A DNA stretch of 64,000 nt from a virus, in IMG/VR virus record IMGVR_UViG_3300025168_000032, positions 121,653-185,652 of that record. The stretch is one strand, 5' to 3'. This document shows, piece by piece, positions 28,847 through 43,719 of this stretch; position 1 is the first letter of the stretch; each line of letters begins with the position of its first letter. Under the pieces are notes generated by a model, which saw only the letters and a program-made list of their open reading frames with translations, was not told the origin of the DNA and ran no database searches. The translations under genes and the position numbers were made by a program.

Positions 28847-28852
28847 TTATAT

Positions 28853-29310: not shown

Positions 29311-29675
29311 GTTATTTTAAGAAGTTTATAGCAATTTCAGCTTTTATGATGGCACCTTTCTACGAAGCTTGTGCAATGCGAGTTCTTATAAAGGATAATC
29401 ATTACACAACCCAGTCAGCGACCACAGTCTACAACGTAGAAGAGTACCACAAAGAGACTCAACAACCCCAACCCACAGTTGGGTCACAAAGTCCAACATC
29501 CAAGCGCAAAATAAAGCGTAAAAAGAAAGCAATACGCAGAGTTCCCAAGCACAAAAAAAGAAAAAAGATTAGTAAGCGTCCATCTCGTAAAGTTAAAAAA
29601 GAATGGAAGCGAAAAGGCAGAAAAGCAGTTAATAAAAGAAATAAAAAACACAAATATAAAAAAAGGGACAAATAA
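29307..29675 (+). CDS. Protein with hydrophobic N-terminus and very Lys/Arg-rich C-terminal half
   Basis: KRKIKRKKK...HKYKKRDK; stop codon lies inside the first dyad element. Confidence 0.5.
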   Translation: MSYFKKFIAISAFMMAPFYEACAMRVLIKDNHYTTQSATTVYNVEEYHKETQQPQPTVGSQSPTSKRKIKRKKKAIRRVPKHKKRKKISKRPSRKVKKEWKRKGRKAVNKRNKKHKYKKRDK

Positions 29676-29709
29676 TGTCCTACCCGTATACTACCTACTA
29701 TGATACATT
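29666..29709 (+). repeat. Dyad promoter element, type A, copy 1
   Basis: GGACA-AATAA-TGTCC-TACCCG-N17-TACATT. Confidence 0.9.
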
Positions 29710-29731
29710 ATAGACAAGACAGGAGAGTGCG

Positions 29732-29863
29732 ATGAAAAACAACCTATTTATTTTGATATCAGTGGCACTTCTTATTGTAGTGGCTGATCCCAGATGGGCT
29801 TTCCTGATTTCTTGTTTAGTTTTAACCACAATATTGCTTTCCATTGGAGGTAACAATGAGTAG
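29732..29863 (+). CDS. 43-aa membrane peptide
   Basis: AGGAG RBS; two hydrophobic segments. Confidence 0.5.
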   Translation: MKNNLFILISVALLIVVADPRWAFLISCLVLTTILLSIGGNNE

Positions 29864-30149
29864 TTTATTTTTTGGAGGGGAAAAAGCCCCTAAAGAGGAA
29901 GCAGAAGCAGCCCTCATGAAAGACATGGTAGAATATACCGATAACCGATTTTGGGTCCGTTTCGAGAGTGATGACACCAGCACACATCTAACCGCCATTA
30001 TTGAGAGTAAGCACAACGCCACATCTTCACTATTTAAGTTAAAAAAACCTTTGCCGGCTAAATATATGGGCTGGCGATTGATTGTTAAATCAGTTCCGCC
30101 TAACTATATAGAATATATTTTGCTTGCAAAGGAGAAAGCTAATGATTAG
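29856..30149 (+). CDS. Hypothetical protein
   Basis: GGAGG RBS. Confidence 0.55.
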   Translation: MSSLFFGGEKAPKEEAEAALMKDMVEYTDNRFWVRFESDDTSTHLTAIIESKHNATSSLFKLKKPLPAKYMGWRLIVKSVPPNYIEYILLAKEKAND

Positions 30150-30324
30150 GCCATTTAAAATAACAAAAAAACACTTAGGTAAGTACGAAGAACTCTCAAA
30201 TTATGATCTTGGAATGTATGCAATCCAAGTCAGACCAGAACAACCCCTGATGGTGTACGAAACCATTCAGATAGCGGTCAAAGCATACAGTTATTTTCAG
30301 AACATAATCAAAAAGGACAATTAA
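30142..30324 (+). CDS. Hypothetical protein
   Basis: AGGAG RBS; stop inside dyad copy 2. Confidence 0.5.
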   Translation: MIRPFKITKKHLGKYEELSNYDLGMYAIQVRPEQPLMVYETIQIAVKAYSYFQNIIKKDN

Positions 30325-30358
30325 TGTCCTACCCACCTACCCCCGAGCATGATATGTT
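30315..30358 (+). repeat. Dyad promoter element, type A, copy 2
   Basis: GGACA-ATTAA-TGTCC-TACCCA-N17-TATGTT. Confidence 0.9.
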
Positions 30359-30381
30359 ATGTATACAACCAAGGAGATAGT

Positions 30382-30627
30382 ATGAATGAGAAACTTGAAG
30401 CGATCAAAGAAGCAATAACCTTTATTAGGCACAATTGGCTCGATAACTCTGGTATATGGAGAGGCGAACTAAATGACTTTGTTGGGGCCATCAAACTAAG
30501 CAATGTCTCAGGTCGCGAGGTCACGCGCTTAGTCAAAGCTATTGCTGATGGTGAACACACACCAGTAGACGGGATAACTGGAACTTTACTTGGAGGAAAG
30601 TTGACAATCGTTAGGGTTTCGAGATGA
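30382..30627 (+). CDS. Hypothetical early protein
   Basis: CCAAGGAG RBS. Confidence 0.55.
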   Translation: MNEKLEAIKEAITFIRHNWLDNSGIWRGELNDFVGAIKLSNVSGREVTRLVKAIADGEHTPVDGITGTLLGGKLTIVRVSR

Positions 30628-31418
30628 TAGGTATAGAGTGGGGATCAGGAACTGTACGTTGCAGCTTTTGTGGCAAAAGGGGGCACAATATCTCCTCCTG
30701 TAGCCATGTCGAGGAAGTATTCCAGACCATCACGAAGAACAACCAAGACACAACAGATCTAACGTTCACTCAAAGACAAGCCGTGCATGAAATGAAAAAT
30801 AGAACCGTCCGAAACCAAAAAAGAAAAAACCGTAGAAATGCTAAGAAAGGCTCACGCTGTTCTTTTTGTAGAGAGGGAGGGCACAGGAGAACTACCTGCA
30901 CTAAACACAAGTCTTTTGGAAAAAAAATATATAGAGCAAACCAAATCTGGAAAAAAGAGTTTGCTGAACTTGTTAACGAGACTGGAATAGGCGTAGGGTC
31001 GCTTATCGAGTTTCCGAGAGCTTCAATCATGTGGTATGCAGCAGATAACGACAAACTAAGGGGAATAGTTACTGCTTTTAATATGGATAGCCTAAACATA
31101 TTTTCTGCTTGGCCTAATCAAGATAAATACAGAACCGTACCCAATATGATTGTTGTAGACTGTGCGGATTATAAGCAGGTTAATTGGCCATTCAATAAAA
31201 TCCAGCCGTTTGTTGATAACGGCCTAACTTTATCACGATGGGGTAACGTCACAACCGATATTATTTGTAGTGCTCCATGGCAGCCACCTACTGGGTGGCT
31301 GGAAAGCAAAGAAAACCCAGAGATTGAATATGTACTTGGCAGTCTTTCTCGTGAACATAGAGCGTATGCAGCAATTGACACCCTTGTAAAAAACTGGCTA
31401 AACAGGGATAATAAATGA
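30624..31418 (+). CDS. Double CCHC zinc-knuckle protein (paralogue 1)
   Basis: CSFCGKRGHNISSC and CSFCREGGHRRTTC, both Cx2Cx4Hx4C. Confidence 0.75.
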   Translation: MIGIEWGSGTVRCSFCGKRGHNISSCSHVEEVFQTITKNNQDTTDLTFTQRQAVHEMKNRTVRNQKRKNRRNAKKGSRCSFCREGGHRRTTCTKHKSFGKKIYRANQIWKKEFAELVNETGIGVGSLIEFPRASIMWYAADNDKLRGIVTAFNMDSLNIFSAWPNQDKYRTVPNMIVVDCADYKQVNWPFNKIQPFVDNGLTLSRWGNVTTDIICSAPWQPPTGWLESKENPEIEYVLGSLSREHRAYAAIDTLVKNWLNRDNK

Positions 31419-31723
31419 GCAAGACGCTTAGGAGAGCAGTGATACGCTCAAGAACAAACAGCGAATGGTATAACACCAAAAGGCGGTCAAAAAATGACCT
31501 ACCCGATTCACCAAAGGCAAGATATATTACTAACACACCCAAGGAGGATGTAATGGTTGACGTTGACAAGATAATACAATATGAAAATGGAGAGATGCAG
31601 GAAGATGAAGTAATAGAGTTCTTTCAAGAGCTTATTAACACAGGTCATGCTTGGACCCTCCAAGGGCATTACGGTAGAGTTGCCAGCGGTCTTATTAAGG
31701 CTGGCCTCTGTACAAGACCATGA
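31415..31723 (+). CDS. Hypothetical protein; probable true start 31553, with an upstream stub reading through dyad copy 3
   Basis: AAGGAGG RBS before MVDVDK...FQELINTG.AW.LQGHYGR. Confidence 0.6.
   Translation: MSKTLRRAVIRSRTNSEWYNTKRRSKNDLPDSPKARYITNTPKEDVMVDVDKIIQYENGEMQEDEVIEFFQELINTGHAWTLQGHYGRVASGLIKAGLCTRP
31485..31528 (+). repeat. Dyad promoter element, type A, copy 3
   Basis: GGTCA-AAAAA-TGACC-TACCCG-N17-TATATT. Confidence 0.9.
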
Positions 31724-31887
31724 TGATCGGGGACTTGATCTATATTTCAGATTGGAAGGAGTATGCTATTGTAATGGAGAAGGGCGAGGTTTTTACTGAT
31801 GAATGCTCATGGCGCGTGTCGATTATCTCAGACCCTGAATTGGTCGAAGTTTTTAGTTATGAGATGGAGGTGATTAATGAAGCATGA
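31720..31887 (+). CDS. 55-aa SH3/KOW-like protein (not in track)
   Basis: MMIGDLIYI...MEVINEA. Confidence 0.55.
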   Translation: MMIGDLIYISDWKEYAIVMEKGEVFTDECSWRVSIISDPELVEVFSYEMEVINEA

Positions 31888-32095
31888 ACCAGCTAAATAC
31901 GAAGTTGGTGACTTGGTTGGCATTGGCTGGAATGGTAAGTTAAAATGCCCAAATCCAGCCATTGTGATAAAGGTTTTAGACCCCGTTTCTATCTCTTGCG
32001 GTAGCACCTTGTATGTCGTCAGACCAGTTAAGGACCATGAGAGTGAGAGTTGGTGTGACTATACGCATCTGACCCCTTGGGTAACGGACAAATAA
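31877..32095 (+). CDS. SH3/KOW-like protein
   Basis: YEVGDLV; stop inside dyad copy 4. Confidence 0.6.
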   Translation: MKHEPAKYEVGDLVGIGWNGKLKCPNPAIVIKVLDPVSISCGSTLYVVRPVKDHESESWCDYTHLTPWVTDK

Positions 32096-32129
32096 TGTCC
32101 TACCCACCTACCCCTGCCTGTGATATACT
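32086..32129 (+). repeat. Dyad promoter element, type A, copy 4
   Basis: GGACA-AATAA-TGTCC-TACCCA-N17-TATACT. Confidence 0.9.
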
Positions 32130-32153
32130 ATATACATAACCAAGGAGAACAAA

Positions 32154-32207
32154 ATGAACGAACATGAAGAAGAAGAAAGAATGTGGAGAACGTGGGGTGA
32201 CCAATGA
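32154..32207 (+). CDS. 17-aa mini-ORF or gene stub
   Basis: CCAAGGAG RBS; MNEHEEEERMWRTWGDQ; ATGA-coupled to the next gene. Confidence 0.4.
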   Translation: MNEHEEEERMWRTWGDQ

Positions 32208-32377
32208 AAGTAGGAGATTTAGTAAGATACGATATGGATGATCTTTGCGTAGGTGTTGTCACCTGCATCGATCCAGAAGAGCTTGGTGATGATGGCGAAG
32301 TGGAAGTCGTTTGGGTCGGTGGTGCTGTAAGCAACCATTCAACTTATTTTTTGGAGGTGATCAGTGAAAATAAATGA
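32204..32377 (+). CDS. 57-aa SH3/KOW-like protein (not in track)
   Basis: MKVGDLVRY...GVV...VEVVW.GG...FLEVISENK. Confidence 0.65.
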   Translation: MKVGDLVRYDMDDLCVGVVTCIDPEELGDDGEVEVVWVGGAVSNHSTYFLEVISENK

Positions 32378-32558
32378 TTTAGTAAAAGTAGGTGACTTAG
32401 TAAGGTACAAACATCGTTACATAGGAGAACAGTTTGTAGTTGTAGCCGTTCGCACAAACCACACCAGCCCCAAACGTCTAAAGGTGCTGTGCGTATCAGC
32501 CAAGACCCTAAAAAAAACAAGATGGTCTTGGTCATCGACCGTTAGTGTGCTTGCGTGA
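32364..32558 (+). CDS. SH3/KOW-like protein with duplicated start motif
   Basis: MKINDLVKVGDLVRY. Confidence 0.6.
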   Translation: MKINDLVKVGDLVRYKHRYIGEQFVVVAVRTNHTSPKRLKVLCVSAKTLKKTRWSWSSTVSVLA

Positions 32559-32761
32559 ATGTTGGTGATTTGGTCTGGGTATACCGCAATGCTCACCCAA
32601 GCCGAGAAAGGTTTATAGGTGTGATCACTGAGATCGAAGACCCTTGGGGTTCGGATCGTGGGTGTAGCGTGTTTGTTACCTTTTTTGACGGAGACTGGGG
32701 AGTATATCACCCATCCCAAATCAATCTTATCCCAAAAGAGAAAGAACATGAAAGTAGGTGA
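32555..32761 (+). CDS. SH3/KOW-like protein
   Basis: MNVGDLV...IGVI...VTFFDG...HESR. Confidence 0.65.
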   Translation: MNVGDLVWVYRNAHPSRERFIGVITEIEDPWGSDRGCSVFVTFFDGDWGVYHPSQINLIPKEKEHESR

Positions 32762-32912
32762 TTTAATAGTGCCAACCAAAAGGATGCGAGACTTCGGCTA
32801 TCACGAGGTTGGTATTGTAATTAGGATATGGGGTGGCAGATCGGTGGTCGCCTTTCCAGATGGAAGCTCCCAGACTTTCCACCCATCTCAATTGAAACCG
32901 GACAAAAATTGA
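32748..32912 (+). CDS. SH3/KOW-like protein
   Basis: MKVGDLI...VGIVI...VAFPDG...LKPDKN; stop inside dyad copy 5. Confidence 0.65.
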   Translation: MKVGDLIVPTKRMRDFGYHEVGIVIRIWGGRSVVAFPDGSSQTFHPSQLKPDKN

Positions 32913-32943
32913 CCTACCCATGTACCCCCGAGCATGATATATT
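32900..32943 (+). repeat. Dyad promoter element, type A, copy 5
   Basis: GGACA-AAAAT-TGACC-TACCCA-N17-TATATT. Confidence 0.9.
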
Positions 32944-32966
32944 ATATGTAGACCCAAGGAGAAACC

Positions 32967-33671
32967 ATGAGAAGAAGAACATCAGAAGAAATCGCAGCAG
33001 CGATTGAAAGAGCAGAACAAATGGGAAGACATAGATCCGTAAAGGTTATGGCTGATATGAAAACGCAATTTGACAGCCGAGGGTGTCTATCAGATCGCCA
33101 ATGGGACTACTTGAACAAACTTATGCTTGATAATTGCAAAGCAGCATTGGTGGATTTTAATGAATACTTTGAACGCTTTACCACAGATAAAGAGTTTAGG
33201 GAAAAGGCGGAGGTCGTGTCTCGATATTACCAAGGGGCCGGACAATACTACGTCAGAGCAGCGACGCAAACACTGATAGCATTAAAGAGTAATGACAAGA
33301 ATGATTTGCCACCGTACCATTCTTTTTCCAAAATGATAAATAACAAATACGCTGATAAGGTATGGGATAGCCATAGTAAACCACCTTTATATTCAGCAGG
33401 TGACTTGATAAAAATACGCTCTACTGGTATCAATCGGATATGGAGCCAAAGAAAAAGCACCGAAGAGGAGCAAGCTGGGATCGAGAACCTCAACAGCCAC
33501 CCTTGTTTGGTCATCAAGGCAAACGCGAAACCCATCACTACTGCGCTTCAATACAAACCAAAACAGGGTGGCGCAAGGGTTTACTCTGTTATGCCAGTCG
33601 GCAGCACGTTGATTTACTATATCTTAGAATGTGATTTGAAGAAGAATCGCACACCAAAAGCCAAAAAATAG
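32967..33671 (+). CDS. Hypothetical protein with C-terminal SH3-like domain
   Basis: LSDRQW.YL helix; YSAGDLIKIR domain. Confidence 0.6.
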   Translation: MRRRTSEEIAAAIERAEQMGRHRSVKVMADMKTQFDSRGCLSDRQWDYLNKLMLDNCKAALVDFNEYFERFTTDKEFREKAEVVSRYYQGAGQYYVRAATQTLIALKSNDKNDLPPYHSFSKMINNKYADKVWDSHSKPPLYSAGDLIKIRSTGINRIWSQRKSTEEEQAGIENLNSHPCLVIKANAKPITTALQYKPKQGGARVYSVMPVGSTLIYYILECDLKKNRTPKAKK

Positions 33672-33679
33672 GGACTGAT

Positions 33680-33946
33680 ATGGATATTATATTTGAAGAG
33701 GTGCCGCTGCCATTCAAACTTGGCCTTGGAAACAAAAATGGCAAGATAACAAGAGTGCTGGTGCACCATAAGGGAAATTTTTATATAGTATCAGAGAACA
33801 CAGCCCTAAAAGAGACGCTGGTTTTTCCTGCTTCTCCAACGGGCGAGATACTTGACTGGGTTGAAGTGGGCGGCGGAGACGGATTAACACTAAAAGAGGT
33901 TTTGGCTAACTTCGACCAGAACCTACATTCCGAGATGTATTTTTAA
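33680..33946 (+). CDS. Hypothetical protein
   Basis: TLVFPAS..GEILDW.EV.G. Confidence 0.55.
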   Translation: MDIIFEEVPLPFKLGLGNKNGKITRVLVHHKGNFYIVSENTALKETLVFPASPTGEILDWVEVGGGDGLTLKEVLANFDQNLHSEMYF

Positions 33947-33949
33947 GCC

Positions 33950-33993
33950 GGACATTTTCTGACCTACCCATCTACCCCTGCCCATGATACATT
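33950..33993 (+). repeat. Dyad promoter element, type A, copy 6
   Basis: GGACA-TTTTC-TGACC-TACCCA-N17-TACATT. Confidence 0.9.
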
Positions 33994-34017
33994 GTATACA
34001 GAACCAAGGAGAACCCA

Positions 34018-34887
34018 ATGAAAATATTTGAAGAAAAGAACAGACCCACACACAAAAGCAGTGCGAACGCTTGTGGCTATTGCCGCAACACAGGACACAA
34101 TAGATCCAACTGTCCTCATGCACCAGAAGACTGGTCACACTTTACCACTTATCAAATACCATTGAAGACCTCAAAGGTACAATCTCAATGGATAAAGTAT
34201 CCAAAGTATTGGGGTGCTTGGTATGAAGAGTGTAAAAAGACTGTGGAACTTCAACAGCGCAATGCACAAAAGGTCAAGGCTAAAAGATCGACAACCAGAC
34301 ACTGTGGTTTCTGTGGTGATGCTGGTCACACTCGTCGTAACTGCTCAGAGATGGAGGAGTTCCTTAAACAGTGCTACAAAGCCAATGAGAACTGGCGAAG
34401 GGCTGCATACAACATTCTCGTTAAAGAGCATGGCATTGATATAGGGGCAGCGGTGCAAGTTTCCCAAAGTCAGTGGGTTGGGGGTGAGAATATTAAGACT
34501 GAACATATTGGACTCATCACCTCCGTTAATTGGGATAGTTTAAATGTTATGACTGCTTATGACAGCGGCTATGATTGGCAGCGGTATGCCCAATGTATTG
34601 ACGTTAGGGTCATGGTTGACGGAAAAGATCATCGTCTTTCACTAAAAGACAAGCTTCACGGTACGTCTCTTTCAGAGGTAATCAACAAGAGAAACACAAA
34701 TACAGGCTATTATTATCAGCAACTTTCCTTAGACAAGGTGATCGGCAAGTCAGCGCAGCCACTAAAAGAAGAATGGGTCACGTCTTACAAAGACGCTTTT
34801 GATTACCTTGCTAAGAAGCTTAGTTTAGAACAGCTTGAAGATCGTGGGATACTCAGTCATATCCAAAGCTGGGCAAATCGGTCATAA
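34018..34887 (+). CDS. Double CCHC zinc-knuckle protein (paralogue 2)
   Basis: CGYCRNTGHNRSNC and CGFCGDAGHTRRNC; stop inside dyad copy 7. Confidence 0.75.
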   Translation: MKIFEEKNRPTHKSSANACGYCRNTGHNRSNCPHAPEDWSHFTTYQIPLKTSKVQSQWIKYPKYWGAWYEECKKTVELQQRNAQKVKAKRSTTRHCGFCGDAGHTRRNCSEMEEFLKQCYKANENWRRAAYNILVKEHGIDIGAAVQVSQSQWVGGENIKTEHIGLITSVNWDSLNVMTAYDSGYDWQRYAQCIDVRVMVDGKDHRLSLKDKLHGTSLSEVINKRNTNTGYYYQQLSLDKVIGKSAQPLKEEWVTSYKDAFDYLAKKLSLEQLEDRGILSHIQSWANRS

Positions 34888-34923
34888 TCTGTCCTACCCA
34901 ATTCCTATCCACCATGATACATT
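34880..34923 (+). repeat. Dyad promoter element, type A, copy 7
   Basis: GGTCA-TAATC-TGTCC-TACCCA-N17-TACATT. Confidence 0.9.
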
Positions 34924-34947
34924 GTATACAGAACCAAGGAGAACAAA

Positions 34948-35100
34948 ATGAAGTTTAAAGTAGGAGATTTAGTAAAGACCCACCGTGGCAATGTTGCCCT
35001 CGTTACAGAGGTTGGCGAAGACTGGTGCAATATACTATTTTGCAACAGTGGGTTTTTAAGAACTGGCTTTCCAGCGTGGTGGTTAGAGGTGGTACAATGA
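34948..35100 (+). CDS. 50-aa SH3/KOW-like protein (not in track)
   Basis: MKFKVGDLVK...WLEVVQ. Confidence 0.65.
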   Translation: MKFKVGDLVKTHRGNVALVTEVGEDWCNILFCNSGFLRTGFPAWWLEVVQ

Positions 35101-35246
35101 AAATCGGTGATTTAGTAAAATACGATTACGATGGAGATACCGGCATAGTCATTGACATAGATGCAACTGGTATGCTTTTCGTTCACTGGAGTGACGGCAA
35201 AGAAGGGTGGCATATCCACAGCGAGTTGGAGGCAGTATGCAAGTAG
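35097..35246 (+). CDS. SH3/KOW-like protein
   Basis: MKIGDLVK..GIVI..VHWSDG..LEAVCK. Confidence 0.7.
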   Translation: MKIGDLVKYDYDGDTGIVIDIDATGMLFVHWSDGKEGWHIHSELEAVCK

Positions 35247-35392
35247 GTGATTTAGTCAAGAACAGGCACGGCAACACGGGGATCATTACAAAACGATATG
35301 GCTTCAAGAAACGGAGGACTTGGTGGGTGCATTGGCTTTGTGGTGAGGACTGCCCGATTCATGAGCGATTTGTGGAGGCAGTATGCAGATAG
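35237..35392 (+). CDS. SH3/KOW-like protein
   Basis: MQVGDLVK..GII..VHWLCG..VEAVCR. Confidence 0.7.
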   Translation: MQVGDLVKNRHGNTGIITKRYGFKKRRTWWVHWLCGEDCPIHERFVEAVCR

Positions 35393-35619
35393 GTGATTTA
35401 GTAAGGATAGATAAGAGTTCCGCTATGGTTGGTCACGTTGGCAAGGTGGGCTTAGTTGTCAGAAGAGTGAAACAAACATTGAAGCCATCTAACACGTGGC
35501 TGATCGCGTTTTCAGATGGCAGTACGGTTATTTTTCATAGAGTAGATTTATTAGAGGTGCCAAATGAAAATAGGAGATTTAGTACAACTATCAGCTTATG
35601 GGGAAGCGAGGAACCATAA
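35383..35619 (+). CDS. SH3/KOW-like protein with extended C-terminus
   Basis: MQIGDLVR..GLVV..IAFSDG..LLEVPNENRR... Confidence 0.65.
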   Translation: MQIGDLVRIDKSSAMVGHVGKVGLVVRRVKQTLKPSNTWLIAFSDGSTVIFHRVDLLEVPNENRRFSTTISLWGSEEP

Positions 35620-35779
35620 CCACGGTTGGTATGGTGGCTGGGGGCTTATATTGGAAATCCATAATGACTCAACCTATCCCATCAAAGCCCAGTGGTACAA
35701 TACCCGTAGTGGCAAAGATCAAGGCGGAGCGCGATTCCACCCAAGAGAATTGAAGAAATATAAACCGGACAAAAATTGA
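35564..35779 (+). CDS. SH3/KOW-like protein
   Basis: MKIGDLVQ..GLIL..AQWY..YKPDKN; stop inside dyad copy 8. Confidence 0.7.
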   Translation: MKIGDLVQLSAYGEARNHNHGWYGGWGLILEIHNDSTYPIKAQWYNTRSGKDQGGARFHPRELKKYKPDKN

Positions 35780-35810
35780 CCTACCCATTTACCCCTGACC
35801 ATGCTATATT
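35767..35810 (+). repeat. Dyad promoter element, type A, copy 8
   Basis: GGACA-AAAAT-TGACC-TACCCA-N17-TATATT. Confidence 0.9.
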
Positions 35811-35834
35811 ATGTACAGAACCAAGGAGAACAAA

Positions 35835-36005
35835 ATGCAAGTAGGTGATTTAATGATTGACGAAAAGACCTTGAGGGAAATAGGGGAAGCAGTTTATGTC
35901 ATCTTTCTTGGTTACAACCAATGGGGTGAGATCAAGGTTATGCTTCCAGACGGATTTGTTTACCAAGGCTGCGAATTGGACTTCAAGGAGGTAGTATGCA
36001 AGTAG
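35835..36005 (+). CDS. SH3/KOW-like protein
   Basis: MQVGDLM...VMLPDG...FKEVVCK. Confidence 0.65.
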   Translation: MQVGDLMIDEKTLREIGEAVYVIFLGYNQWGEIKVMLPDGFVYQGCELDFKEVVCK

Positions 36006-36615: not shown

Positions 36616-36640
36616 ATATACATAACCAAGGAGAAAACTT

Positions 36641-36931: not shown

Positions 36932-36967
36932 ATTGTCCTACCCATTCAGACTGAAACAGCATATATT
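36924..36967 (+). repeat. Dyad promoter element, type A, copy 10
   Basis: GGACA-TAAAT-TGTCC-TACCCA-N17-TATATT. Confidence 0.9.
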
Positions 36968-36991
36968 ACTTATACCAACCAAGGAGAGAGC

Positions 36992-37216
36992 ATGTCAAAA
37001 CAAACAACATTCATCGTATCAGGCTGGGTAGAGCGTCACTACCGACTGGAAATAGAAGCTTCTTCTTATGAGGAGGCAGAAAGGATAGCAGAGAGCAAGC
37101 TTGATTATTCAGAGGGTTCCGAGCTTGATGATTATGAGGATGGTACACACGTTCGCATTAGTGATGTAGAGTGTGAAGACCCCGAATGGGATGAAGAATC
37201 CGAAGAAGAATTATAA
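36992..37216 (+). CDS. Small acidic early protein
   Basis: IEASSYEEAERIAE motif. Confidence 0.6.
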   Translation: MSKQTTFIVSGWVERHYRLEIEASSYEEAERIAESKLDYSEGSELDDYEDGTHVRISDVECEDPEWDEESEEEL

Positions 37217-37219
37217 AAC

Positions 37220-37263
37220 GGACAAAAAATGTCCTACCCAAACAGACCTAAACTACTTATATT
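37220..37263 (+). repeat. Dyad promoter element, type A, copy 11
   Basis: GGACA-AAAAA-TGTCC-TACCCA-N17-TATATT. Confidence 0.9.
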
Positions 37264-37312
37264 ATAGATACAAAACAAACACAAACTTTAACTTTCCAAA
37301 AGGAGTCCTATC

Positions 37313-38368
37313 ATGGCTATCGACTTTCGTACTTACAACTCAGTTATTCACCTCGTCATCAATGCAAAGTTTCCTATACTTATTCGTGGTCGTCACGGTG
37401 TTGGGAAATCAGAGCTTGTCTATAAGACAGCAAAAGACCTTGGTCTGCCTATCGTTGAGCGTCGAGCCTCACAGATGACAGAAGGCGACTTACTCGGCCT
37501 ACCAAAGGTAGAGAAGGGTATCACTAAGTGGCTTGCCCCTGAGTGGTTGCACAATGCCTGTAAAAACCCTGTGGTCCTTTTCCTCGACGAGGTTGATCGA
37601 GCTACAATGGAAGTCCGTCAAGGTATCTTTGAGCTTTGCGATAGCCGTAAAATCGCTGGCTACACCCTTCATCCAGATACTCTCATCTTTGCCGCTGTTA
37701 ACGGTGGAGAGCACGGTGCCCAGTACCAAGTAGGAGAGATGGACCCTGCTGAACTTGACCGCTACACTGTCTTTGATGTGGAGCCTACTACTGAAGATTG
37801 GCTGGATTGGGCTTCTGACCGTGTATCCTCAGAAGTCTGGGACTTTATTAACGCTAACCATAGTCATTTAGAGCACAAGGATGAGTATGAGCCTAACAAG
37901 GTTTACCCTTCTCGACGCTCTTGGGTTCGCCTTGACAAGGCCCTTAAAGGCTTAAAGCAAATCGAGCATGGTACTACACTATACCACCTTAGCCACGCCT
38001 TCGTAGGTATGGAGGCTGCGGTTGCTTTCAACGACTTCATCCAGAACTATGAACGTCAGGTCACTGTAGAAGACATCCTTGACAGAGGTAAGTTTGAACT
38101 CATGAAGGACTGGAAAAACAATGATCACCTTGCTCTTATCGAGAAGATGAAGGCAGAAAAGATATTTGATGAGGATCTTAGTGATGTTCGCACTGCTAAC
38201 CTTGCCGAGTATTTCGTAATTCTCCCAAGTGAGATCGCCATGACCATTTGGACCAACATCGGCAAAGGAAAAGTGCAGTCTAACATCGCAGCTTTCCACG
38301 GGCAAATCACAAAAGCTGGCGTAGTTGTTAAAATGCACCTTGTAAAGCTTCTATCGAAGGAGGTATAA
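37313..38368 (+). CDS. MoxR-type AAA+ ATPase
   Basis: GRHGVGKS, EGDLLGLP, LFLDEVDRA, FAAVN, MDPAELDR, PSRRSW. Confidence 0.88.
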   Translation: MAIDFRTYNSVIHLVINAKFPILIRGRHGVGKSELVYKTAKDLGLPIVERRASQMTEGDLLGLPKVEKGITKWLAPEWLHNACKNPVVLFLDEVDRATMEVRQGIFELCDSRKIAGYTLHPDTLIFAAVNGGEHGAQYQVGEMDPAELDRYTVFDVEPTTEDWLDWASDRVSSEVWDFINANHSHLEHKDEYEPNKVYPSRRSWVRLDKALKGLKQIEHGTTLYHLSHAFVGMEAAVAFNDFIQNYERQVTVEDILDRGKFELMKDWKNNDHLALIEKMKAEKIFDEDLSDVRTANLAEYFVILPSEIAMTIWTNIGKGKVQSNIAAFHGQITKAGVVVKMHLVKLLSKEV

Positions 38369-38369
38369 T

Positions 38370-38582
38370 ATGAATACCATATATGTAACACCAACCCCAG
38401 CTAACTATTTTACTACTGGACTTGGGGTATTCAACAAAGCTAAGAGAAGAAAGCCCAAGTCACGCAATGTTGTCCAGCAAAACCACATTCAACAGAATCG
38501 CAAGGCTGGTCCCCACAAAGACAAGAAGAAAGAACAAAGCAGAAAGAAATGTAGACAAAGAGTGAGAACGGACAGTTTTTGA
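38370..38582 (+). CDS. Small basic hypothetical protein
   Basis: AGPHKDKKK..SRKKCR; stop inside dyad copy 12. Confidence 0.5.
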   Translation: MNTIYVTPTPANYFTTGLGVFNKAKRRKPKSRNVVQQNHIQQNRKAGPHKDKKKEQSRKKCRQRVRTDSF

Positions 38583-38613
38583 CCTACCCACATACCACAT
38601 GCCGCGATATATT
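38570..38613 (+). repeat. Dyad promoter element, type A, copy 12
   Basis: GGACA-GTTTT-TGACC-TACCCA-N17-TATATT. Confidence 0.9.
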
Positions 38614-38639
38614 ATAGACATATCCAAGGAGTAATAGAA

Positions 38640-39821
38640 ATGACCAAGTTTGATTTAAATGAATACACGTTTTCGCTACTGAGACAGGAGCCGTTTTTTG
38701 CGGCCTTGTCTCGACGCATTACAAAGATGTCCACCAAGTCTATTCCTACCGCTGGTGTCTGTATCAACAAAAACACAGCCCAGTTTGAGATGGTATACAA
38801 CCCCGAGTTTATGGGGGACTTGTCCACAACGCACCTACAGGGGGTCTTGATGCACGAGTTCTATCATATCATCTTTGAGCATGTTACTGGTCGTTTACCC
38901 CCAGAAGGCATGAATATTATGTGGAACATTGCTACTGATCTTGCCATCAATAGCCATATAGCTGATAAACTTCCAGAGCAAGCCTGCATCCCCGGCCAAG
39001 GCCGATTTGAAGAGTATGAAACAGGCCTATCAGCAGAGCAATATTATTCTCAACTAAAGAAAGATGAGCAGTTTAAACCCAAGGACGGTGATGACGGTGA
39101 GGGCAAGGGAGGTGAAGGTCAACCCAACAGCCTTGATGATCACTCTGGTTGGGGTAATGCCGATGCAGAGACGAAGGCTATGGCTAAAGAGCGACTACGC
39201 CAAGCTGTAGAGGATGCGGCTAAAGAAGCCAGTAGCAAAGGTTCATGGGGTAGTGTATCCGCTGAGATGAGAAAGAAGATTATGGATATGATTAATCCAA
39301 AAGTCGATTGGAGAAAGGTGCTACGTTACTTCATTAAGACATCGCAACGCTCCAACAAGCGTAGCACCGTTCGACGAATTAACAAGCGTTTTCCCTACAT
39401 TCATGCTGGTAAGAAGGTGACACGTCATGCGAAAATCGCCATCTCTATCGATCAGTCTGGCTCTGTATCTGACAAGATGCTTGCAGCATTCTTCGCTGAA
39501 CTTGGTTCACTTGCCAAATATGCCGAGTTCACTGTCATACCCTTTGATACTGAGGTTATGGAAGAGCATGTGTATGTATGGAAAAAGGGCAAGCGTAAGA
39601 CGTGGGAACGTGTCATGTGCGGTGGAACCTGCTTTGATGCTCCCACCAAGTATGTAAACAGCAAACAGTTTGATGGTCATATAGTGCTGAGTGATATGTG
39701 TGCTCCTAAACCCATCCCTTCTAAGTGTCAACGCATGTGGATGACAGATACAGAGGGCAAAAACGCTCAATATTTCACTACAAATGAAAGGGTTATAGTC
39801 ATAGAGGGCAATAGTGAGTAA
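38640..39821 (+). CDS. Metallopeptidase-vWA protein (DUF2201-like), MoxR partner
   Basis: IPTAGV, HEFYH (HExxH), WNIATDLAIN, IDQSGSV (MIDAS), GGTCF, SD. Confidence 0.88.
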   Translation: MTKFDLNEYTFSLLRQEPFFAALSRRITKMSTKSIPTAGVCINKNTAQFEMVYNPEFMGDLSTTHLQGVLMHEFYHIIFEHVTGRLPPEGMNIMWNIATDLAINSHIADKLPEQACIPGQGRFEEYETGLSAEQYYSQLKKDEQFKPKDGDDGEGKGGEGQPNSLDDHSGWGNADAETKAMAKERLRQAVEDAAKEASSKGSWGSVSAEMRKKIMDMINPKVDWRKVLRYFIKTSQRSNKRSTVRRINKRFPYIHAGKKVTRHAKIAISIDQSGSVSDKMLAAFFAELGSLAKYAEFTVIPFDTEVMEEHVYVWKKGKRKTWERVMCGGTCFDAPTKYVNSKQFDGHIVLSDMCAPKPIPSKCQRMWMTDTEGKNAQYFTTNERVIVIEGNSE

Positions 39822-40038
39822 ATCCGAAAATAGGGCCGTTTTGAACGATTATTATATGTCCGTTGGGGACTTGGTTGAAGATAGAGTTGTAAATCCGAAT
39901 ACCATAGGTCAAAGGATAGGTATAGTCTTAAGGATCGACTCAGCTTGGACAGTCAACGCAACATATCTCGTTCAATGGAATGGCTGGGTTAATCCCATAC
40001 CATATAAAGATTGGGAAATCAGAAAAGTGGTCAAATAA
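39814..40038 (+). CDS. SH3/KOW-like protein
   Basis: SVGDLV..IGIVL..VQWNG; stop inside dyad copy 13. Confidence 0.6.
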   Translation: MSKSENRAVLNDYYMSVGDLVEDRVVNPNTIGQRIGIVLRIDSAWTVNATYLVQWNGWVNPIPYKDWEIRKVVK

Positions 40039-40072
40039 TGACCTACCCACCTACCCCTGTACGCGCTACATT
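40029..40072 (+). repeat. Dyad promoter element, type A, copy 13
   Basis: GGTCA-AATAA-TGACC-TACCCA-N17-TACATT. Confidence 0.9.
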
Positions 40073-40099
40073 ATATATACAACCAAGGAGAATAAGAAA

Positions 40100-40504
40100 A
40101 TGGCTTATTTGAAAACAGACCAAACAGTCTATTTTGCACAAGGTAACATTACTTCAATTGTTGAAAAGGTGGCCTTCCGCAAATACCTTTCCAAGCCCCG
40201 CAAGGATAAGAAGACTGGGGAACGTAGAAGGAAGTGGAAAGCAATGCCTTATGCAGTTTGTAAAGTGCTTTTAAGCGAAGACAACAGCGTCCCAGCCGAT
40301 ACACAATTTTTGATTGCTGGTTACCGTCTTAACCAAAAATACTTACAGGGAAAGATGATCCTTGTGATGGGTAACGAGCATATAGCAGACTATCAAGAAG
40401 AATGGGGAAACCAGTGGGTTAGCAACATGATTAAACAGGAGAATGAATATGAAGAACAACGAAAGAAAAAGGCGGCTGAGTATCGGGCGAAGAATAATAA
40501 ATAA
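40100..40504 (+). CDS. Hypothetical early protein
   Basis: CCAAGGAG RBS; the track's N-terminal extension is promoter DNA. Confidence 0.6.
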   Translation: MAYLKTDQTVYFAQGNITSIVEKVAFRKYLSKPRKDKKTGERRRKWKAMPYAVCKVLLSEDNSVPADTQFLIAGYRLNQKYLQGKMILVMGNEHIADYQEEWGNQWVSNMIKQENEYEEQRKKKAAEYRAKNNK

Positions 40505-40505
40505 G

Positions 40506-40601
40506 ATGGAAAATATAGTCTTAGGGATAGGGTTAGTAAGTTTTGTATATTGTGCAGTGATCAGGAGGAGTTTCGGCTATGGTAAAGAAAACAAACATTA
40601 A
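40506..40601 (+). CDS. 31-aa membrane peptide
   Basis: MENIVLGIGLVSFVYCAVIRR... Confidence 0.4.
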   Translation: MENIVLGIGLVSFVYCAVIRRSFGYGKENKH

Positions 40602-40794
40602 ACAGCGCAAATTTTCGATAAAACTAAAGACCTGCTTCGTGTTGCAGGTCCACTTAGAAGAACTCGATATGATAAAGGAAACAGCAAGTCAATTCCCTGA
40701 GCCTGTCCCTGAGCATGATGAGTTTATAGAAATGATGGTTGAAGCCCTCTGTAAGTCTCTCTATATCATTTTTCCTAATCCTTTTGACGCATAG
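40579..40794 (+). CDS. Hypothetical protein
   Basis: GGAGG RBS. Confidence 0.5.
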   Translation: MVKKTNIKQRKFSIKLKTCFVLQVHLEELDMIKETASQFPEPVPEHDEFIEMMVEALCKSLYIIFPNPFDA

Positions 40795-40802
40795 ACCCAA
40801 AC

Positions 40803-40846
40803 GGACACCTTTTGTCCTACCCAACCAGACCAGAACAAGATATATT
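40803..40846 (+). repeat. Dyad promoter element, type A, copy 14
   Basis: GGACA-CCTTT-TGTCC-TACCCA-N17-TATATT. Confidence 0.9.
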
Positions 40847-40870
40847 ATATATACCAACCAAGGAAACAAA

Positions 40871-41119
40871 ATGGAAAATCAAGCTGACCTTTACAAAACC
40901 ACCATCACCGATACTATTGATGACTTCCAGAGCTTAATGGCCAAAGACCTTGGTAATATTAAGAAGCTTATCAGCATAATGGAAGCAGACCCATCACGTA
41001 TGCCATCGCTTACAACCAACCTATCTCAGTTAGCCGCAAGCCTTCAAGAGAATACCAATGCAATGCGAGCACTGCAAAATGTGGCTCTGTATGTTGACAG
41101 AGAAGCGAAGTACAGATAA
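40871..41119 (+). CDS. Hypothetical helical protein
   Basis: CCAAGGA RBS. Confidence 0.55.
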   Translation: MENQADLYKTTITDTIDDFQSLMAKDLGNIKKLISIMEADPSRMPSLTTNLSQLAASLQENTNAMRALQNVALYVDREAKYR

Positions 41120-41120
41120 C

Positions 41121-41164
41121 GGACATTTTTTGTCCTACCCAAAGAGACTGAAACAAGATATATT
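41121..41164 (+). repeat. Dyad promoter element, type A, copy 15
   Basis: GGACA-TTTTT-TGTCC-TACCCA-N17-TATATT. Confidence 0.9.
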
Positions 41165-41189
41165 ATTAACACAACCAAGGAGAACTAAC

Positions 41190-41471
41190 ATGCCTATTCG
41201 TACTACCAATTCAGACATCCCCCGTCACTGGTCACACAACCAACCAGCCACAAGCCATAACAACCAATACAAGACAGATGGCCAGAACCTGTATAGCTAT
41301 CGCCAGATTATTGGTATCACCCTTAGCAACGGTGATAAAGTCCTACTTGATTATACATCGCCCGCTGGTCACATGATATCAATGACCACCTCCAACCACG
41401 TTGGAAGGGCCCGCAGTTATGCCGATGTTGTCATGAACCCCGACGCGGCCAAAGTTGCTGATTTGATATAA
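41190..41471 (+). CDS. Hypothetical early protein
   Basis: LYSY...IG...S.TTSNHVG motif. Confidence 0.6.
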   Translation: MPIRTTNSDIPRHWSHNQPATSHNNQYKTDGQNLYSYRQIIGITLSNGDKVLLDYTSPAGHMISMTTSNHVGRARSYADVVMNPDAAKVADLI

Positions 41472-41473
41472 CG

Positions 41474-41812
41474 ATGAAGTCAGACCTATACAAAATAAAA
41501 CTTATCAACAAGAGAACCGATAAGTCATGGGAGGTGAAAAGGAAGGGAAAGATAGAACGCAAAGGAAACCTATATATTCGCAAGTGTTATAGAGGGAGAA
41601 AGGGCCAATGGTCTATTATCCATAAGCATACCGACTCAGCGATCATAAAGCCCTTCCTTCGCCTGTCTCTCCCCCAAGCTCGTAGCATCTGCCAGAATAT
41701 CGGGCATTGGCAATGCTGGAAACGAAAGAGTGTTAAGGCCGTAAGATCCAGCCTGACCGAAGCCCAGAAGACAAAGCTATTGAAAGAGGTGAAACAATGT
41801 CAGCACATATAA
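41474..41812 (+). CDS. Basic hypothetical protein
   Basis: ORF. Confidence 0.5.
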   Translation: MKSDLYKIKLINKRTDKSWEVKRKGKIERKGNLYIRKCYRGRKGQWSIIHKHTDSAIIKPFLRLSLPQARSICQNIGHWQCWKRKSVKAVRSSLTEAQKTKLLKEVKQCQHI

Positions 41813-41937
41813 CCACGAACGGCAGCACCGTTCAAATCCACATTACACCAAAGAACAACCACAAGAGGGATAATATTATTTTTGTAGAGAAGGGACCAAG
41901 AGTAAGAAAGAACAAGAAGGTACAAAGCAATGACTGA
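41797..41937 (+). CDS. 46-aa hypothetical protein (not in track)
   Basis: GAGG RBS; MSAHITTNG... Confidence 0.4.
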   Translation: MSAHITTNGSTVQIHITPKNNHKRDNIIFVEKGPRVRKNKKVQSND

Positions 41938-42115
41938 TCCAATATCAAACACACAGCTTAGTAAGTCGGAACAGTTTGCTATTAACTTCGCTGCAATGCT
42001 GACGATCAACCAAGTCATCAAGGAAGCCCAGTATCAGCCCGAGCAAATCCGAAAGGAGCTTGAGAAAACCATCTATGACGCACTGCTGTTAAACCCCAAT
42101 CCTGCTGAGGCATAG
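41930..42115 (+). CDS. Hypothetical protein
   Basis: Coupled ORF. Confidence 0.5.
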   Translation: MTDPISNTQLSKSEQFAINFAAMLTINQVIKEAQYQPEQIRKELEKTIYDALLLNPNPAEA

Positions 42116-42117
42116 CT

Positions 42118-42384
42118 ATGAATCAAGACCTCATAAAATATAAAAACGTAAAAGTAGGGGACTTGTTAAAGAGTGAAAGCTTTAGAGGTAACCACGCAAC
42201 AGTATTAGATAAACGTTTAGAGTGGGACTTAATACCTACAAGCTGTGAATATATTGAATGGGGAATGATACAGGTGATTGATTGTTACGGTGATGTCTTC
42301 TGGTTTGAAGCTGATGAGCATGATGTTTATTTATGTTATCATCCTGATACAAAGGAGCCTGTAACACAGTGTGAAGATAAATAA
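42118..42384 (+). CDS. SH3/KOW-like protein
   Basis: VKVGDLL. Confidence 0.55.
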   Translation: MNQDLIKYKNVKVGDLLKSESFRGNHATVLDKRLEWDLIPTSCEYIEWGMIQVIDCYGDVFWFEADEHDVYLCYHPDTKEPVTQCEDK

Positions 42385-42676
42385 AATGATCTACTACTAC
42401 ACTCCCCTGCGCCTGCTCGTGCCTGTTTGCGCTTGTCTGCTTGTGCTTGCAATGTCAATGGGGAGGAGTTTAGTAGAAAGGTGTAGATATTACTATGTTT
42501 TTAAGGTGTTTTTTATGTTAATGGTCTGTTTAGTGGTGGTTATGGTAGTGTATTTGGTGCACTTTCGCAGTGTAGCTTTGACGATATTCAGCTTACAACC
42601 TGTGTTATCCACGAGCAGCATTGACGATAAAGTAAACCTTTCAAACACCGTTCGGAAACCCAACAGTATTCTATGA
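42371..42676 (+). CDS. Putative two-TM membrane protein
   Basis: Hydrophobic stretches; start uncertain. Confidence 0.35.
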   Translation: MKINKMIYYYTPLRLLVPVCACLLVLAMSMGRSLVERCRYYYVFKVFFMLMVCLVVVMVVYLVHFRSVALTIFSLQPVLSTSSIDDKVNLSNTVRKPNSIL

Positions 42677-42694
42677 GCAATGTTTTGTTTTGCC

Positions 42695-42747
42695 GGACAT
42701 ATTGTGACCGCTTTCACGTTTGACAGAGGATATCATCGGGTTATATT
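42695..42747 (+). repeat. Dyad promoter element, type B, copy 16
   Basis: GGACA-TATTG-TGACC-N10-TTGACA-N16-TATATT. Confidence 0.85.
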
Positions 42748-42843
42748 ATATATATGAAAAGGGCAAACAAATATTCTTTCTCCCCCTAAGAGAAACCTAA
42801 ACTAACCCCTTGATTTTCCTCACCTTTTTATTTTGGAGTTTTC

Positions 42844-42984
42844 ATGCACATCATCACAAGAACATGGTTAGGAATGACCCACACCGTAAAGATCCCAGCC
42901 AGTGACACGGCTCGTTTGTTCTTCTACTTGGAAGCTTATAGCAATCACCCCGAGGTTACATACACTCACAGCTTTGTCGAGTAA
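42844..42984 (+). CDS. 46-aa hypothetical protein (not in track)
   Basis: GGAG RBS; MHIITRTWLG... Confidence 0.5.
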   Translation: MHIITRTWLGMTHTVKIPASDTARLFFYLEAYSNHPEVTYTHSFVE

Positions 42985-42985
42985 C

Positions 42986-43038
42986 GGACATAAATTGACC
43001 GGTTATGGATTCGACAGCAGACCCCAACGAGTTATATT
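42986..43038 (+). repeat. Dyad promoter element, type B, copy 17
   Basis: GGACA-TAAAT-TGACC-N10-TCGACA-N16-TATATT. Confidence 0.85.
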
Positions 43039-43069
43039 ATATACATGAAAACAAACACTTTGGAGAACC

Positions 43070-43324
43070 ATGAACAATCTTTCACTTTATCAAGCCACCC
43101 AACAAGCCAACGAGCTTGCACAGAAGACCCGCCAAGATCATCACGTTGTAGGCAAAAGATCAATGGGAGATTATCATATCGTAGTCATGAGCGAACACGA
43201 GTTTTATCCTTACACGAGTTTGAAGACAACCGATAAGTTTCACGACATCCTAAGAACCAAGCGGGTTGACTGGTCCCTATGGACTCGCGATAGCAACCAA
43301 GGCGTAAAGGAAACACAACCATGA
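43070..43324 (+). CDS. Hypothetical early protein
   Basis: GGAG RBS. Confidence 0.55.
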   Translation: MNNLSLYQATQQANELAQKTRQDHHVVGKRSMGDYHIVVMSEHEFYPYTSLKTTDKFHDILRTKRVDWSLWTRDSNQGVKETQP

Positions 43325-43410
43325 ATGAAGCCACCTTAGACCTTATCCTTATCTTTGCTATCTTCTTTCTATCATACCTTACCATCATTCTTTTAGGAGT
43401 TTTATTATGA
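43321..43410 (+). CDS. 29-aa membrane peptide
   Basis: MNEATLDLILIFAIFFLSYLTIILLGVLL. Confidence 0.45.
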   Translation: MNEATLDLILIFAIFFLSYLTIILLGVLL

Positions 43411-43622
43411 GCCGTCAATCCACTTTAGTTCTCGCTGTTATCGTCGATGTCGCCTGTTGGTCCACCTTAATCCTTTTGCTTGTGCTCTTCCTTCCTTCAT
43501 GCGCTAAGGTTCCACAAGGCACCGTTACAGCCGTGTATGATGAGGTTGTTGTTGTTGATGCAACTCCCATGGTTATTGCAGTATCCGAAGAAATGACAGC
43601 TACAGAATACATTTTAGAATAG
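43407..43622 (+). CDS. Small membrane or lipoprotein-like protein
   Basis: TM helix followed by LPSC. Confidence 0.45.
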   Translation: MSRQSTLVLAVIVDVACWSTLILLLVLFLPSCAKVPQGTVTAVYDEVVVVDATPMVIAVSEEMTATEYILE

Positions 43623-43674
43623 GACATTTTCTGTCCGGTGTCTTGTTTGACAGACCCTGTCACAATGTTATATT
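43622..43674 (+). repeat. Dyad promoter element, type B, copy 18
   Basis: GGACA-TTTTC-TGTCC-N10-TTGACA-N16-TATATT. Confidence 0.85.
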
Positions 43675-43719
43675 ATATACATGAAAACAAACAACTTTCC
43701 CTTTTCCCTCGGAGCCTCA

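Follow-up and report, generated by a model that had tools for sequence, protein, structure and literature searches.

Promoter-early stem-loop (PeSL) cassettes are known from the hyperplastic regions of the T4-type phages RB49/phi1, T4/PST and KVP40/nt-1 (PMC2839356, PMC4122927), and their middle-promoter form is termed PmSL (PMC4122927). The stem-loop of a PeSL is a stable, G/C-rich hairpin that was shown to terminate transcription (PMC2839356, PMC4122927). This work concerns a similar array of repeated elements, each headed by the dyad GGWCA-N5-TGWCC, in an uncultured, marine, 186-kb phage (IMG/VR record IMGVR_UViG_3300025168_000032). The window, by which we mean the whole stretch of DNA that was analysed, comprises the final 64 kb of this 185,652-bp viral record, which has an estimated completeness of 92%. 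In the window as in PeSL regions, a unit of about 75 bp, in which a dyad precedes a promoter and a Shine-Dalgarno site, is repeated among small orphan open reading frames (ORFans) on one strand of one plastic region, and cassette content and order vary between relatives. A preliminary description of this DNA had proposed the T4-type PeSL as the right analogue, which is supported by the occurrence of dyad, promoter and ribosome-binding site together at the head of cassettes (PMC2839356, PMC4122927).

The pattern GGWCANNNNNTGWCC has 18 matches in the window, all on a single strand and within 29666-43636, as compared to a chance expectation of 0.19 matches and a maximum of 2 in any of 100 shuffles. 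The dyad itself was searched for across the entire 185,652-bp record, and there were no matches outside the array. Both architecture and copy number are precise and greatly exceed what chance would give, and the 18 dyads of the preliminary description, including their coordinates and their restriction to the array, were all confirmed by the pattern scan, the shuffles and the search of the whole record. With slightly more confidence than doubt, and judging from sequence, we interpret these units as cassettes made up of the operator of a dimeric regulator, a promoter and a ribosome-binding site, in which TACCCR replaces the -35 hexamer and which have been permuted among relatives. The 18 units would split a 14-kb region of small ORFans into cassettes with independent promoters.

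Two types of element can be distinguished. In the 15 type A copies the dyad directly abuts TACCCA (13 copies) or TACCCG (2 copies), followed after exactly 17 nt by a TAnnnT hexamer at the -10 position (TATATT in 9, TACATT in 4, TATGTT in 1 and TATACT in 1). This layout, as given in the preliminary description, was found in all 15, and the accompanying ribosome-binding site, CCAAGGAG, lies downstream in 12 of them; in 14, an ATG start codon follows 22-27 nt past the -10. The stop codon of the upstream gene lies within the dyad in 10 copies and 3-9 nt ahead of it in 4, again as previously noted, and 67 nt ahead in the remaining one. Apart from these copies, TACCCR-N17-TAnnnT occurs once more in the genome, far off and on the opposite strand. 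TACCCR is identical to TTGACA at 3 of 6 positions, and a TGn extended -10 is present in 8 of the 15 copies and absent from the other 7. The three type B copies (42695, 42986 and 43622) consist of the dyad, 10 nt, TTGACA or TCGACA, 16 nt and TATATT. A canonical -35 hexamer (TTGACA/TCGACA) is thus found in just 3 of the 18 copies, with TACCCR in the other 15, and these last three copies form a class of their own. Nor are the type A spacers freely variable, as had been thought, since they form two sub-families (yyTACCCCTG..ATGa in about 8 copies and CAGACnnAAAC in 4). Among intrinsic terminators on the plus strand of the array there is no convincing one and only one weak case, in agreement with the view that no terminators separate the units. 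The features are as follows.

29666..29709, plus strand: type A element 1, dyad GGACAAATAATGTCC, TACCCG, 17 nt, TACATT
30315..30358, plus strand: type A element 2, TACCCA, -10 TATGTT
31485..31528, plus strand: type A element 3, TACCCG, TATATT; leads the DUF7417 gene at 31553
32086..32129, plus strand: type A element 4, TACCCA, TATACT
32900..32943, plus strand: type A element 5, central A.A mismatch in the dyad; leads conserved gene B (32967-33671)
33950..33993, plus strand: type A element 6, mismatched dyad; leads Zn-knuckle gene Z2 (34018-34887)
34880..34923, plus strand: type A element 7, T.T mismatched dyad; leads a series of SH3-like mini-genes
35767..35810, plus strand: type A element 8, mismatched dyad; leads four further MQVGDLV mini-genes
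36572..36615, plus strand: type A element 9
36924..36967, plus strand: type A element 10, spacer sub-family CAGAC..AAAC
37220..37263, plus strand: type A element 11, leads the AAA_5/MoxR-like ATPase gene (37313-38368), with a leader of 49 nt
38570..38613, plus strand: type A element 12, mismatched dyad; leads the DUF2201 metallopeptidase/VWA gene (38640-39821)
40029..40072, plus strand: type A element 13, leads cassette Y (40100-40504), which is upstream of the ATPase in some relatives
40803..40846, plus strand: type A element 14
41121..41164, plus strand: type A element 15, leads cassette P (41190-41471), of variable position among relatives
42695..42747, plus strand: type B element 1, dyad, 10 nt, TTGACA, 16 nt, TATATT (sigma-70 type)
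42986..43038, plus strand: type B element 2, dyad, 10 nt, TCGACA, 16 nt, TATATT
43622..43674, plus strand: type B element 3, dyad, 10 nt, TTGACA, 16 nt, TATATT; leads gene Q (43720-44067)
29732..44293, plus strand: array genes, about 45 on one strand, mostly ORFans of 40-130 aa

The dyad, its register and its distribution among relatives

Information on the nature of the dyad comes from 292 non-redundant copies. The central stem pair is A-T in 170, T-A in 20, A.A in 53 and T.T in 49 of these, whereas independence of the two positions predicts 167, 17, 56 and 52, respectively; the pair is mismatched in 35% of the copies. Because the counts match independence, there is no selection for base pairing, and this lack of covariation argues for two protein-bound half-sites and against the hairpin of a terminator. 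The five central base pairs are 90% A/T, and the extended consensus reads aaaC-GGWCA-N5-TGWCC(-G). By these statistics the dyad has the hallmarks of a site for a symmetric, dimeric DNA-binding protein, the half-sites being predicted to lie one helical turn apart.

The distance between the end of the dyad and the nearest -35-like hexamer is 0 nt in 145 copies (34 of them with TACCC), 9-11 nt in 17, 19-20 nt in 69 and 29-30 nt in 9; other values were found in 17 copies, and 35 have no assignable hexamer. Distances of 0, about 10, about 20 and about 30 nt indicate that the dyad is kept on one helix face relative to the promoter. If transcription is assumed to start 7 nt past the -10, the dyad centres are predicted to lie near -43, -53, -63 and -73, and under the same assumption the geometry of type A would match the placement of class II activators such as Mor/C or CRP/FNR (-41.5 to -43.5, with a poor -35), with which the phasing also agrees.

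With the array ATPase, at least 219 contigs were retrieved from IMG/VR and at least 585 from metagenomes, many of them from Tara and other marine samples; the complete genomes among them measure 180-205 kb, and no relative above 87% amino-acid identity was available. Of the 160 loci fetched, about 39 have promoters headed by the dyad, and in the ATPase tree 37 of these fall on a single, well-supported side (56 rows, SH-aLRT 99). All copies in any one complete dyad-bearing genome lie within a single region of 17-22 kb, and there are 10-25 copies in G005-G009 versus 0-2 in the dyad-less genomes G010-G014. The dyad sequence is near-invariant across phages whose ATPases are only 60-70% identical, and hexamers distant from the dyad are nearly always TTGACA. 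The abutting hexamer, by contrast, is uniform within lineages and differs between them. The window and its nearest relatives (L009-L013, L094, L095) have TACCCA, and the exact type A composite with TACCCR was found in no other contigs; in L015-L019 and L099-L104 the hexamer is mostly TCGACA, and in L113-L119 and L129 it is TTGACT. TACCCR therefore sits exactly where relatives have TCGACA, TTGACT or TTGACA, which places it at the -35 position as a non-canonical hexamer and supports, as regards position, the proposal of a new -35 made in the preliminary description. The lineage pattern of abutting hexamers, together with the ATPase tree, identifies TACCCR as a derived state of a terminal sub-lineage. 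What that description had missed is that the dyad is widespread in a clade of marine phages, where it precedes canonical promoters, and that just TACCCR is special to this lineage.

In the sister contigs L096-L101 and L017 the dyad has been lost, and a CTACCC box is present in the spacer beside a canonical -35; the same box also occurs within the main spacer sub-family of the window. The promoters of the dyad-less L098, L100, L101 and L017 read aaaCTTTTTTCaC-TTGACA-(4 nt)-CTACCC...GATAGTGGATAGTATAAC, and in these contigs a G-free TACCCTACCCACACCCTAtCtATC lies immediately 5' of GGAG before several genes. A different upstream element is found at the position of the dyad in L057 (951-11324; IMGVR_UViG_3300017775_000008) and its dyad-less kin, whose promoters each carry two additional TTGACA boxes about 11 and about 26 nt upstream of the real -35 (cTTGACAttcaCTTGACAactt..TTGACA).

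Gene order differs among dyad-bearing relatives. The ATPase precedes the metallopeptidase in the window, L015, L016, L018 and L020, whereas the order is reversed in L027, L040, L122, L129, L132, L141, L144 and L145. Cassette Y is located upstream of the ATPase in L018, L019 and L117 and downstream of it in the window, L015, L016 and L099, and the side on which cassette P lies relative to the ATPase and metallopeptidase varies likewise. Identical cassette order in relatives, which the preliminary description had named as grounds against shuffling, was not observed. Reordered genes often, although not always, retain their own dyad promoter. Gene Q keeps an offset-type dyad promoter in L018/L104 and not in L016. 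The stretch between the conserved anchors Z1 and B comprises two cassettes with promoters and eight genes in the window, as compared to three chained mini-genes in L010. In pairs that are 77-89% identical, several replacements of 0.8-1.8 kb carry elements on both flanks.

Proposed mechanism and its alternatives

In the mechanism that we propose, the first part of each unit, a 15-bp palindrome of the form aaaC-GGWCA-(A/T-rich N5)-TGWCC, would be the operator for a symmetric dimeric protein; it would act at the DNA level, and the binding protein could be encoded by the phage or by the host. The second part would be a promoter for the host RNA polymerase, with a sigma-70-type -10 (TATATT) that a 17-bp spacer separates from TACCCR, the substitute for the -35 hexamer in this lineage, and the third a short, G-poor leader carrying the ribosome-binding site. 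As the operator abuts the -35 position, a protein centred near -43 would touch RNA polymerase in the manner of a class II-type activator. Since TACCCR matches TTGACA at only half of its positions, the 15 type A promoters probably need the dyad-binding protein or a partner recognising TACCCR. Outside the array the genome contains dozens of TTGACA-N17-TATATT promoters without a dyad, which indicates that the host polymerase reads the canonical -35, and the type B promoters, which combine such a hexamer with a dyad one helical turn further upstream, would be able to fire on host sigma-70 alone. Activation is favoured over repression because the helical register is kept even where the dyad does not overlap the core promoter. 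We infer promoter activity, the start site and the sense of control from these arrangements, as we do the nature of the factor and the mode of recombination. Among related phages the cassettes have been permuted, gained and lost over evolutionary time, which general homologous recombination at short shared patches would explain most simply; given the short identity shared between elements and the lack of a site-specific recombinase, rare homologous recombination involving UvsX, SSB and exonuclease is the simplest mechanism.

Several observations weigh against this interpretation. The 69 copies at an offset of 20 share one conserved insert, GTAACAnAAAAAAC, and so do not constitute independent evidence of phasing. 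The 8 type A promoters with a TGn extended -10 might work without contact to the -35 and without an activator. Mor, HTH_3, RHH_1 and HTH_17 were not found in dyad-bearing genomes, and profiling of three dyad-plus against three dyad-minus complete genomes, and of TACCC-lineage contigs against the rest, which is confounded by relatedness, gave no credible regulator candidate. As to recombination, the exact identity shared between window elements is short (median 11 nt, maximum 33 nt), and the enrichment of breakpoints within 20 nt of an element (52 of 272, as compared to 28 expected) is inflated by conserved elements that anchor alignment ends. The claim that the dyad is itself a recombination junction was therefore not substantiated, considering this short identity, the lack of a recombinase and an enrichment that is both modest and biased. 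The candidates that emerged from the profiling, namely, Acb5-like, trypsin-like protease, NUDIX, DUF3293, amidohydrolase and PD-(D/E)XK nuclease proteins as well as small ORFans, were rejected, none being a credible DNA binder.

As a tentative extension of the proposal that the dyad is an operator, a conserved operator-binding dimer of a family not yet known may dock on RNA polymerase from about -43, -53, -63 or -73 and be accompanied by a co-evolving reader of TACCCA, TCGACA or TTGACT. If true, this would be a separate promoter class in a large, abundant marine clade of uncultured phages with genomes of about 190 kb, and a switch functionally analogous to T4 MotA/AsiA or Mu Mor, yet unrelated to them.

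Among the alternatives, it is conceivable, if doubtful, that the dyad is the site of a borrowed host transcription factor and that the dyad-bearing sub-clade infects hosts possessing this factor. The class II-like placement, the near-invariance of the dyad across phages with such divergent ATPases and the fact that no dyad-bearing genome has a recognisable phage-encoded DNA-binding regulator would all agree with this idea. However, a scan of 185,579 prokaryote genomes for the dyad followed by TTGAC returned single matches, one per contig, which is the pattern expected by chance, and no host with multiple copies; the dyad is not known to match any operator consensus, and a lineage-specific abutting hexamer suggests that the factor evolves with the phage. 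A search for the host by way of GroEL provided just two weak and uninformative loci.

Alternatively, the dyad may be a shut-off operator by which a dimeric repressor produced later during infection silences the array, the TACCCR promoters being weak or extended -10 promoters that are served by sigma-70 alone. We consider this unlikely, even though the palindrome abuts or overlaps the region contacted by polymerase, a single operator common to 18 promoters would suit coordinated silencing, and the lack of covariation and the A/T-rich centre are compatible with any dimeric binder. The register is still kept at offsets of 10, 20 and 30 bp, where there is no overlap with the core promoter, a behaviour seen more typically in activators that contact polymerase; moreover, a uniform and strongly conserved TACCCR is not explained by a simple loss of -35 function, and the TGn that is found in 8 type A copies, in favour of this idea, is missing in 7.

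It appears improbable that TACCCR-N17-TATATT is read by a phage sigma factor or a MotA/AsiA-like pair of an unrecognised family, with the dyad as a separate layer of control. This would account for a uniform non-canonical hexamer in 15 of 15 copies alongside canonical promoters in the same genome, for its variation with phage lineage and for the CTACCC box beside a canonical -35 in the sister lineage. Yet the -10 is still sigma-70-like, and the domains of such factors (Sigma70_r2, Sigma70_r4, MotA and AsiA, T7-type and multisubunit polymerases) all stayed below threshold: no match past it was obtained for Sigma70_r2, Sigma70_r4, MotA (the PF09114/PF09010 pair with AsiA) or the beta domains of RNA polymerase, and for the T7 RNA polymerase domain there was one sub-threshold match of 14 bits only, in a conserved gene of the structural region. 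The phage sigma factor invoked in the preliminary description was consequently not borne out.

That the dyad is a classical PeSL stem-loop, i.e., a terminator or attenuator hairpin insulating each cassette, is very unlikely. Its position at the end of the preceding gene and just 5' of the promoter is that of a PeSL stem-loop (PMC2839356), and a 5-bp stem is possible in 11 of the 18 window copies. However, of these 18 copies 7 fold at only 0 to -0.6 kcal/mol, the best reaches -5.5 kcal/mol and none is followed by a U tract; sequence rather than structure is conserved, as is evident from the mismatches in over a third of the 292 copies and the absence of central-pair covariation, and the single weak case was the only terminator call on the plus strand. 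Finally, a site-specific recombination site resembling integron attC, at which a dedicated recombinase would move the cassettes, is hardly credible despite the imperfect palindromes at cassette boundaries and the variable order among relatives, because eight genomes of the clade yielded neither a tyrosine nor a serine recombinase, a fixed helical register with the promoter is needless for such a site and every cassette, unlike those of integrons, has its own promoter.

Genes of the array and its surroundings

Nearly all genes of the array are ORFans, the exceptions including the MoxR-like ATPase and the DUF2201 metallopeptidase/VWA protein, and the idea that the cassettes carry "early effectors" was not borne out. 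At least 15 paralogous SH3-like mini-genes of 49-88 aa, with the start M(K/Q)(V/I)GDLV and weak matches to SH3-like Pfam families, are present in the array region. They are located at 28365-29056, 31720-32912, 34948-36584, 39814-40038 and 42118-42384 (N-terminal (M)K/Q-V/I-GDLV), many are chained through overlapping stop and start codons, and the family is multi-copy throughout the clade. A second "dyad", AAGTC-N3-GACTT (AAGTCGGTGACTT), which is frequent in relatives, was rejected, as it is merely the coding sequence for MKVGDLV. Two paralogues with a CCHC zinc knuckle of the retrovirus type, CxxCxxxGHxxxxC (30624-31418 and 34018-34887), are probably nucleic-acid binders; the pair is conserved in about 60 related loci, dyad-bearing and dyad-less alike. 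A search of the ESM Atlas with gene Q returned nothing.

The window also encodes SSB, a UvsX/RecA-like recombinase and an exonuclease, in accordance with the preliminary description, as well as DnaB helicase, ribonucleotide reductase, thymidylate synthase, two ClpP-like proteases, DnaE polymerase and GroEL. The two proteases and GroEL (window 6922-7524, 21084-21698 and 24126-25691) form a proteostasis set with a ClpS-like adaptor, which is located at G000 62044-62364 and whose YKVVLYNDDYTPMEFV motif was recognised by eye. No match was obtained when the array was compared by megablast with 50,697 records of cultured phages, and DnaE and the metallopeptidase share at most 31% identity with any cultured phage, so that no annotated relative could be used. 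The Rfam search over 28-47 kb retrieved a single tRNA and nothing more.

Further observations were made around the array. At 44294-44533 there is a 240-nt intergenic gap with the inverted repeats GTAACAAAGAGTTAC / GTAACAAATAAATGTTTTGTTAC and a G7TCCTC6 hairpin, with no match in Rfam, which may be a terminator or a small RNA closing the last type B unit. The sole minus-strand unit near the array (45577-46441) consists of tRNA-Ala and thymidine kinase behind a perfect TTGACA-N16-TATAAT promoter and lies where the GC skew is locally reversed (40-46 kb). A PD-(D/E)XK endonuclease gene (PF11645; 2165-2632, plus strand) lies between the UvsX-like recombinase and the exonuclease, and its presence in only one related contig (G002, 82% identity) suggests a mobile insertion. 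A 107-aa protein (61085-61408, plus strand), preceded by a strong TTGACA-N17-TATACT promoter, is found at 78-83% identity in 3 of 3 dyad-bearing genomes and is absent from 3 dyad-less ones; it clusters with Acb5 (PF26761) in the ESM Atlas at 0.95, a placement that makes it a likely inhibitor of the cyclic oligonucleotide-based antiphage signalling system (anti-CBASS).

Comparison with known systems

The window elements are neither intrinsic terminators nor an integron-type array. An intrinsic terminator consists of a G+C-rich hairpin with a U tract, neither of which is provided by the window dyads, and an integron array combines an integrase and attC sites with promoterless cassettes, whereas here there is no recombinase and each cassette is led by a promoter.

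Operators of the lambdoid phage 434 have the form ACAA-N6-TTGT, with an uncontacted centre that prefers A/T. The likeness lies in conserved outer half-sites around a centre constrained in composition only, which by analogy would be the signature of a small dimeric binder; the differences are that the present phage has no detectable HTH_3 or Cro-like gene and that its 18 sites are dispersed over promoters instead of forming a tripartite immunity operator. The middle and late promoters of phage Mu, which are activated by Mor and C, have a dyad centred near -43.5 and a poor -35. In the window, too, a palindrome abuts or overlaps a poor -35, with a predicted centre at about -43, but the phage is without a Mor-family protein, the dyad sequence differs and sites are also found at +10, +20 and +30 bp. 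In mode of operation the elements would resemble class II activator promoters such as Mu Pm/Mor, as well as 434-type operators, although they are assigned to neither.

T4 middle promoters combine a MotA box, TGCTT, at -30 with a sigma-70 -10, and depend on sigma appropriation by MotA and AsiA. Like these promoters and PmSL, the window elements join a sigma-70-type -10 to a phage-specific box in place of the -35, and they occur beside canonical early promoters. They differ in the box, which is TACCCR, spaced by 17 bp as in a genuine -35, and not a TGCTT at -30, and in the extra palindrome upstream. No TGCTT box was found in the window elements, and MotA and AsiA (PF09114, PF09010) were not found. 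As no known sigma factor, appropriator or activator was detected, a new regulator family may await discovery in this abundant clade of uncultured marine phages, and the elements offer a ready probe (pull-down, GGACAAAAAATGTCC) for finding the factor and for timing expression in phages without a cultured host.

Large phages are known to express and shuffle accessory genes by means of promoter cassettes repeated in plastic regions. The statistics of the 292 copies suggest that the "stem-loop" of such a cassette need not be a terminator and may be a protein-binding palindrome held in register with the promoter. In one lineage a whole promoter class would appear to have swapped its -35 for TACCCR while canonical promoters persist, probably the footprint of a trans-acting factor. 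From PeSL itself the array differs as follows: the window dyad is conserved in sequence, does not covary, is too weak to terminate and stands in helical register with the -35; 15 of the 18 promoters are without the sigma-70 -35 of PeSL (TTGACA-N17-TATAAT or a near variant); and the phage is not a T4-type replicator but encodes a DnaE polymerase with at most 31% identity to cultured phages. Given a hairpin-less, phased and conserved dyad, the lack of a sigma-70 -35 in most copies and the lack of a Mot box, MotA and AsiA, the array is classed not as PeSL itself but as a variant of it. What is new with respect to the known PeSL-like architecture is the operator-like dyad, its phasing and the replacement of the -35 by TACCCR.

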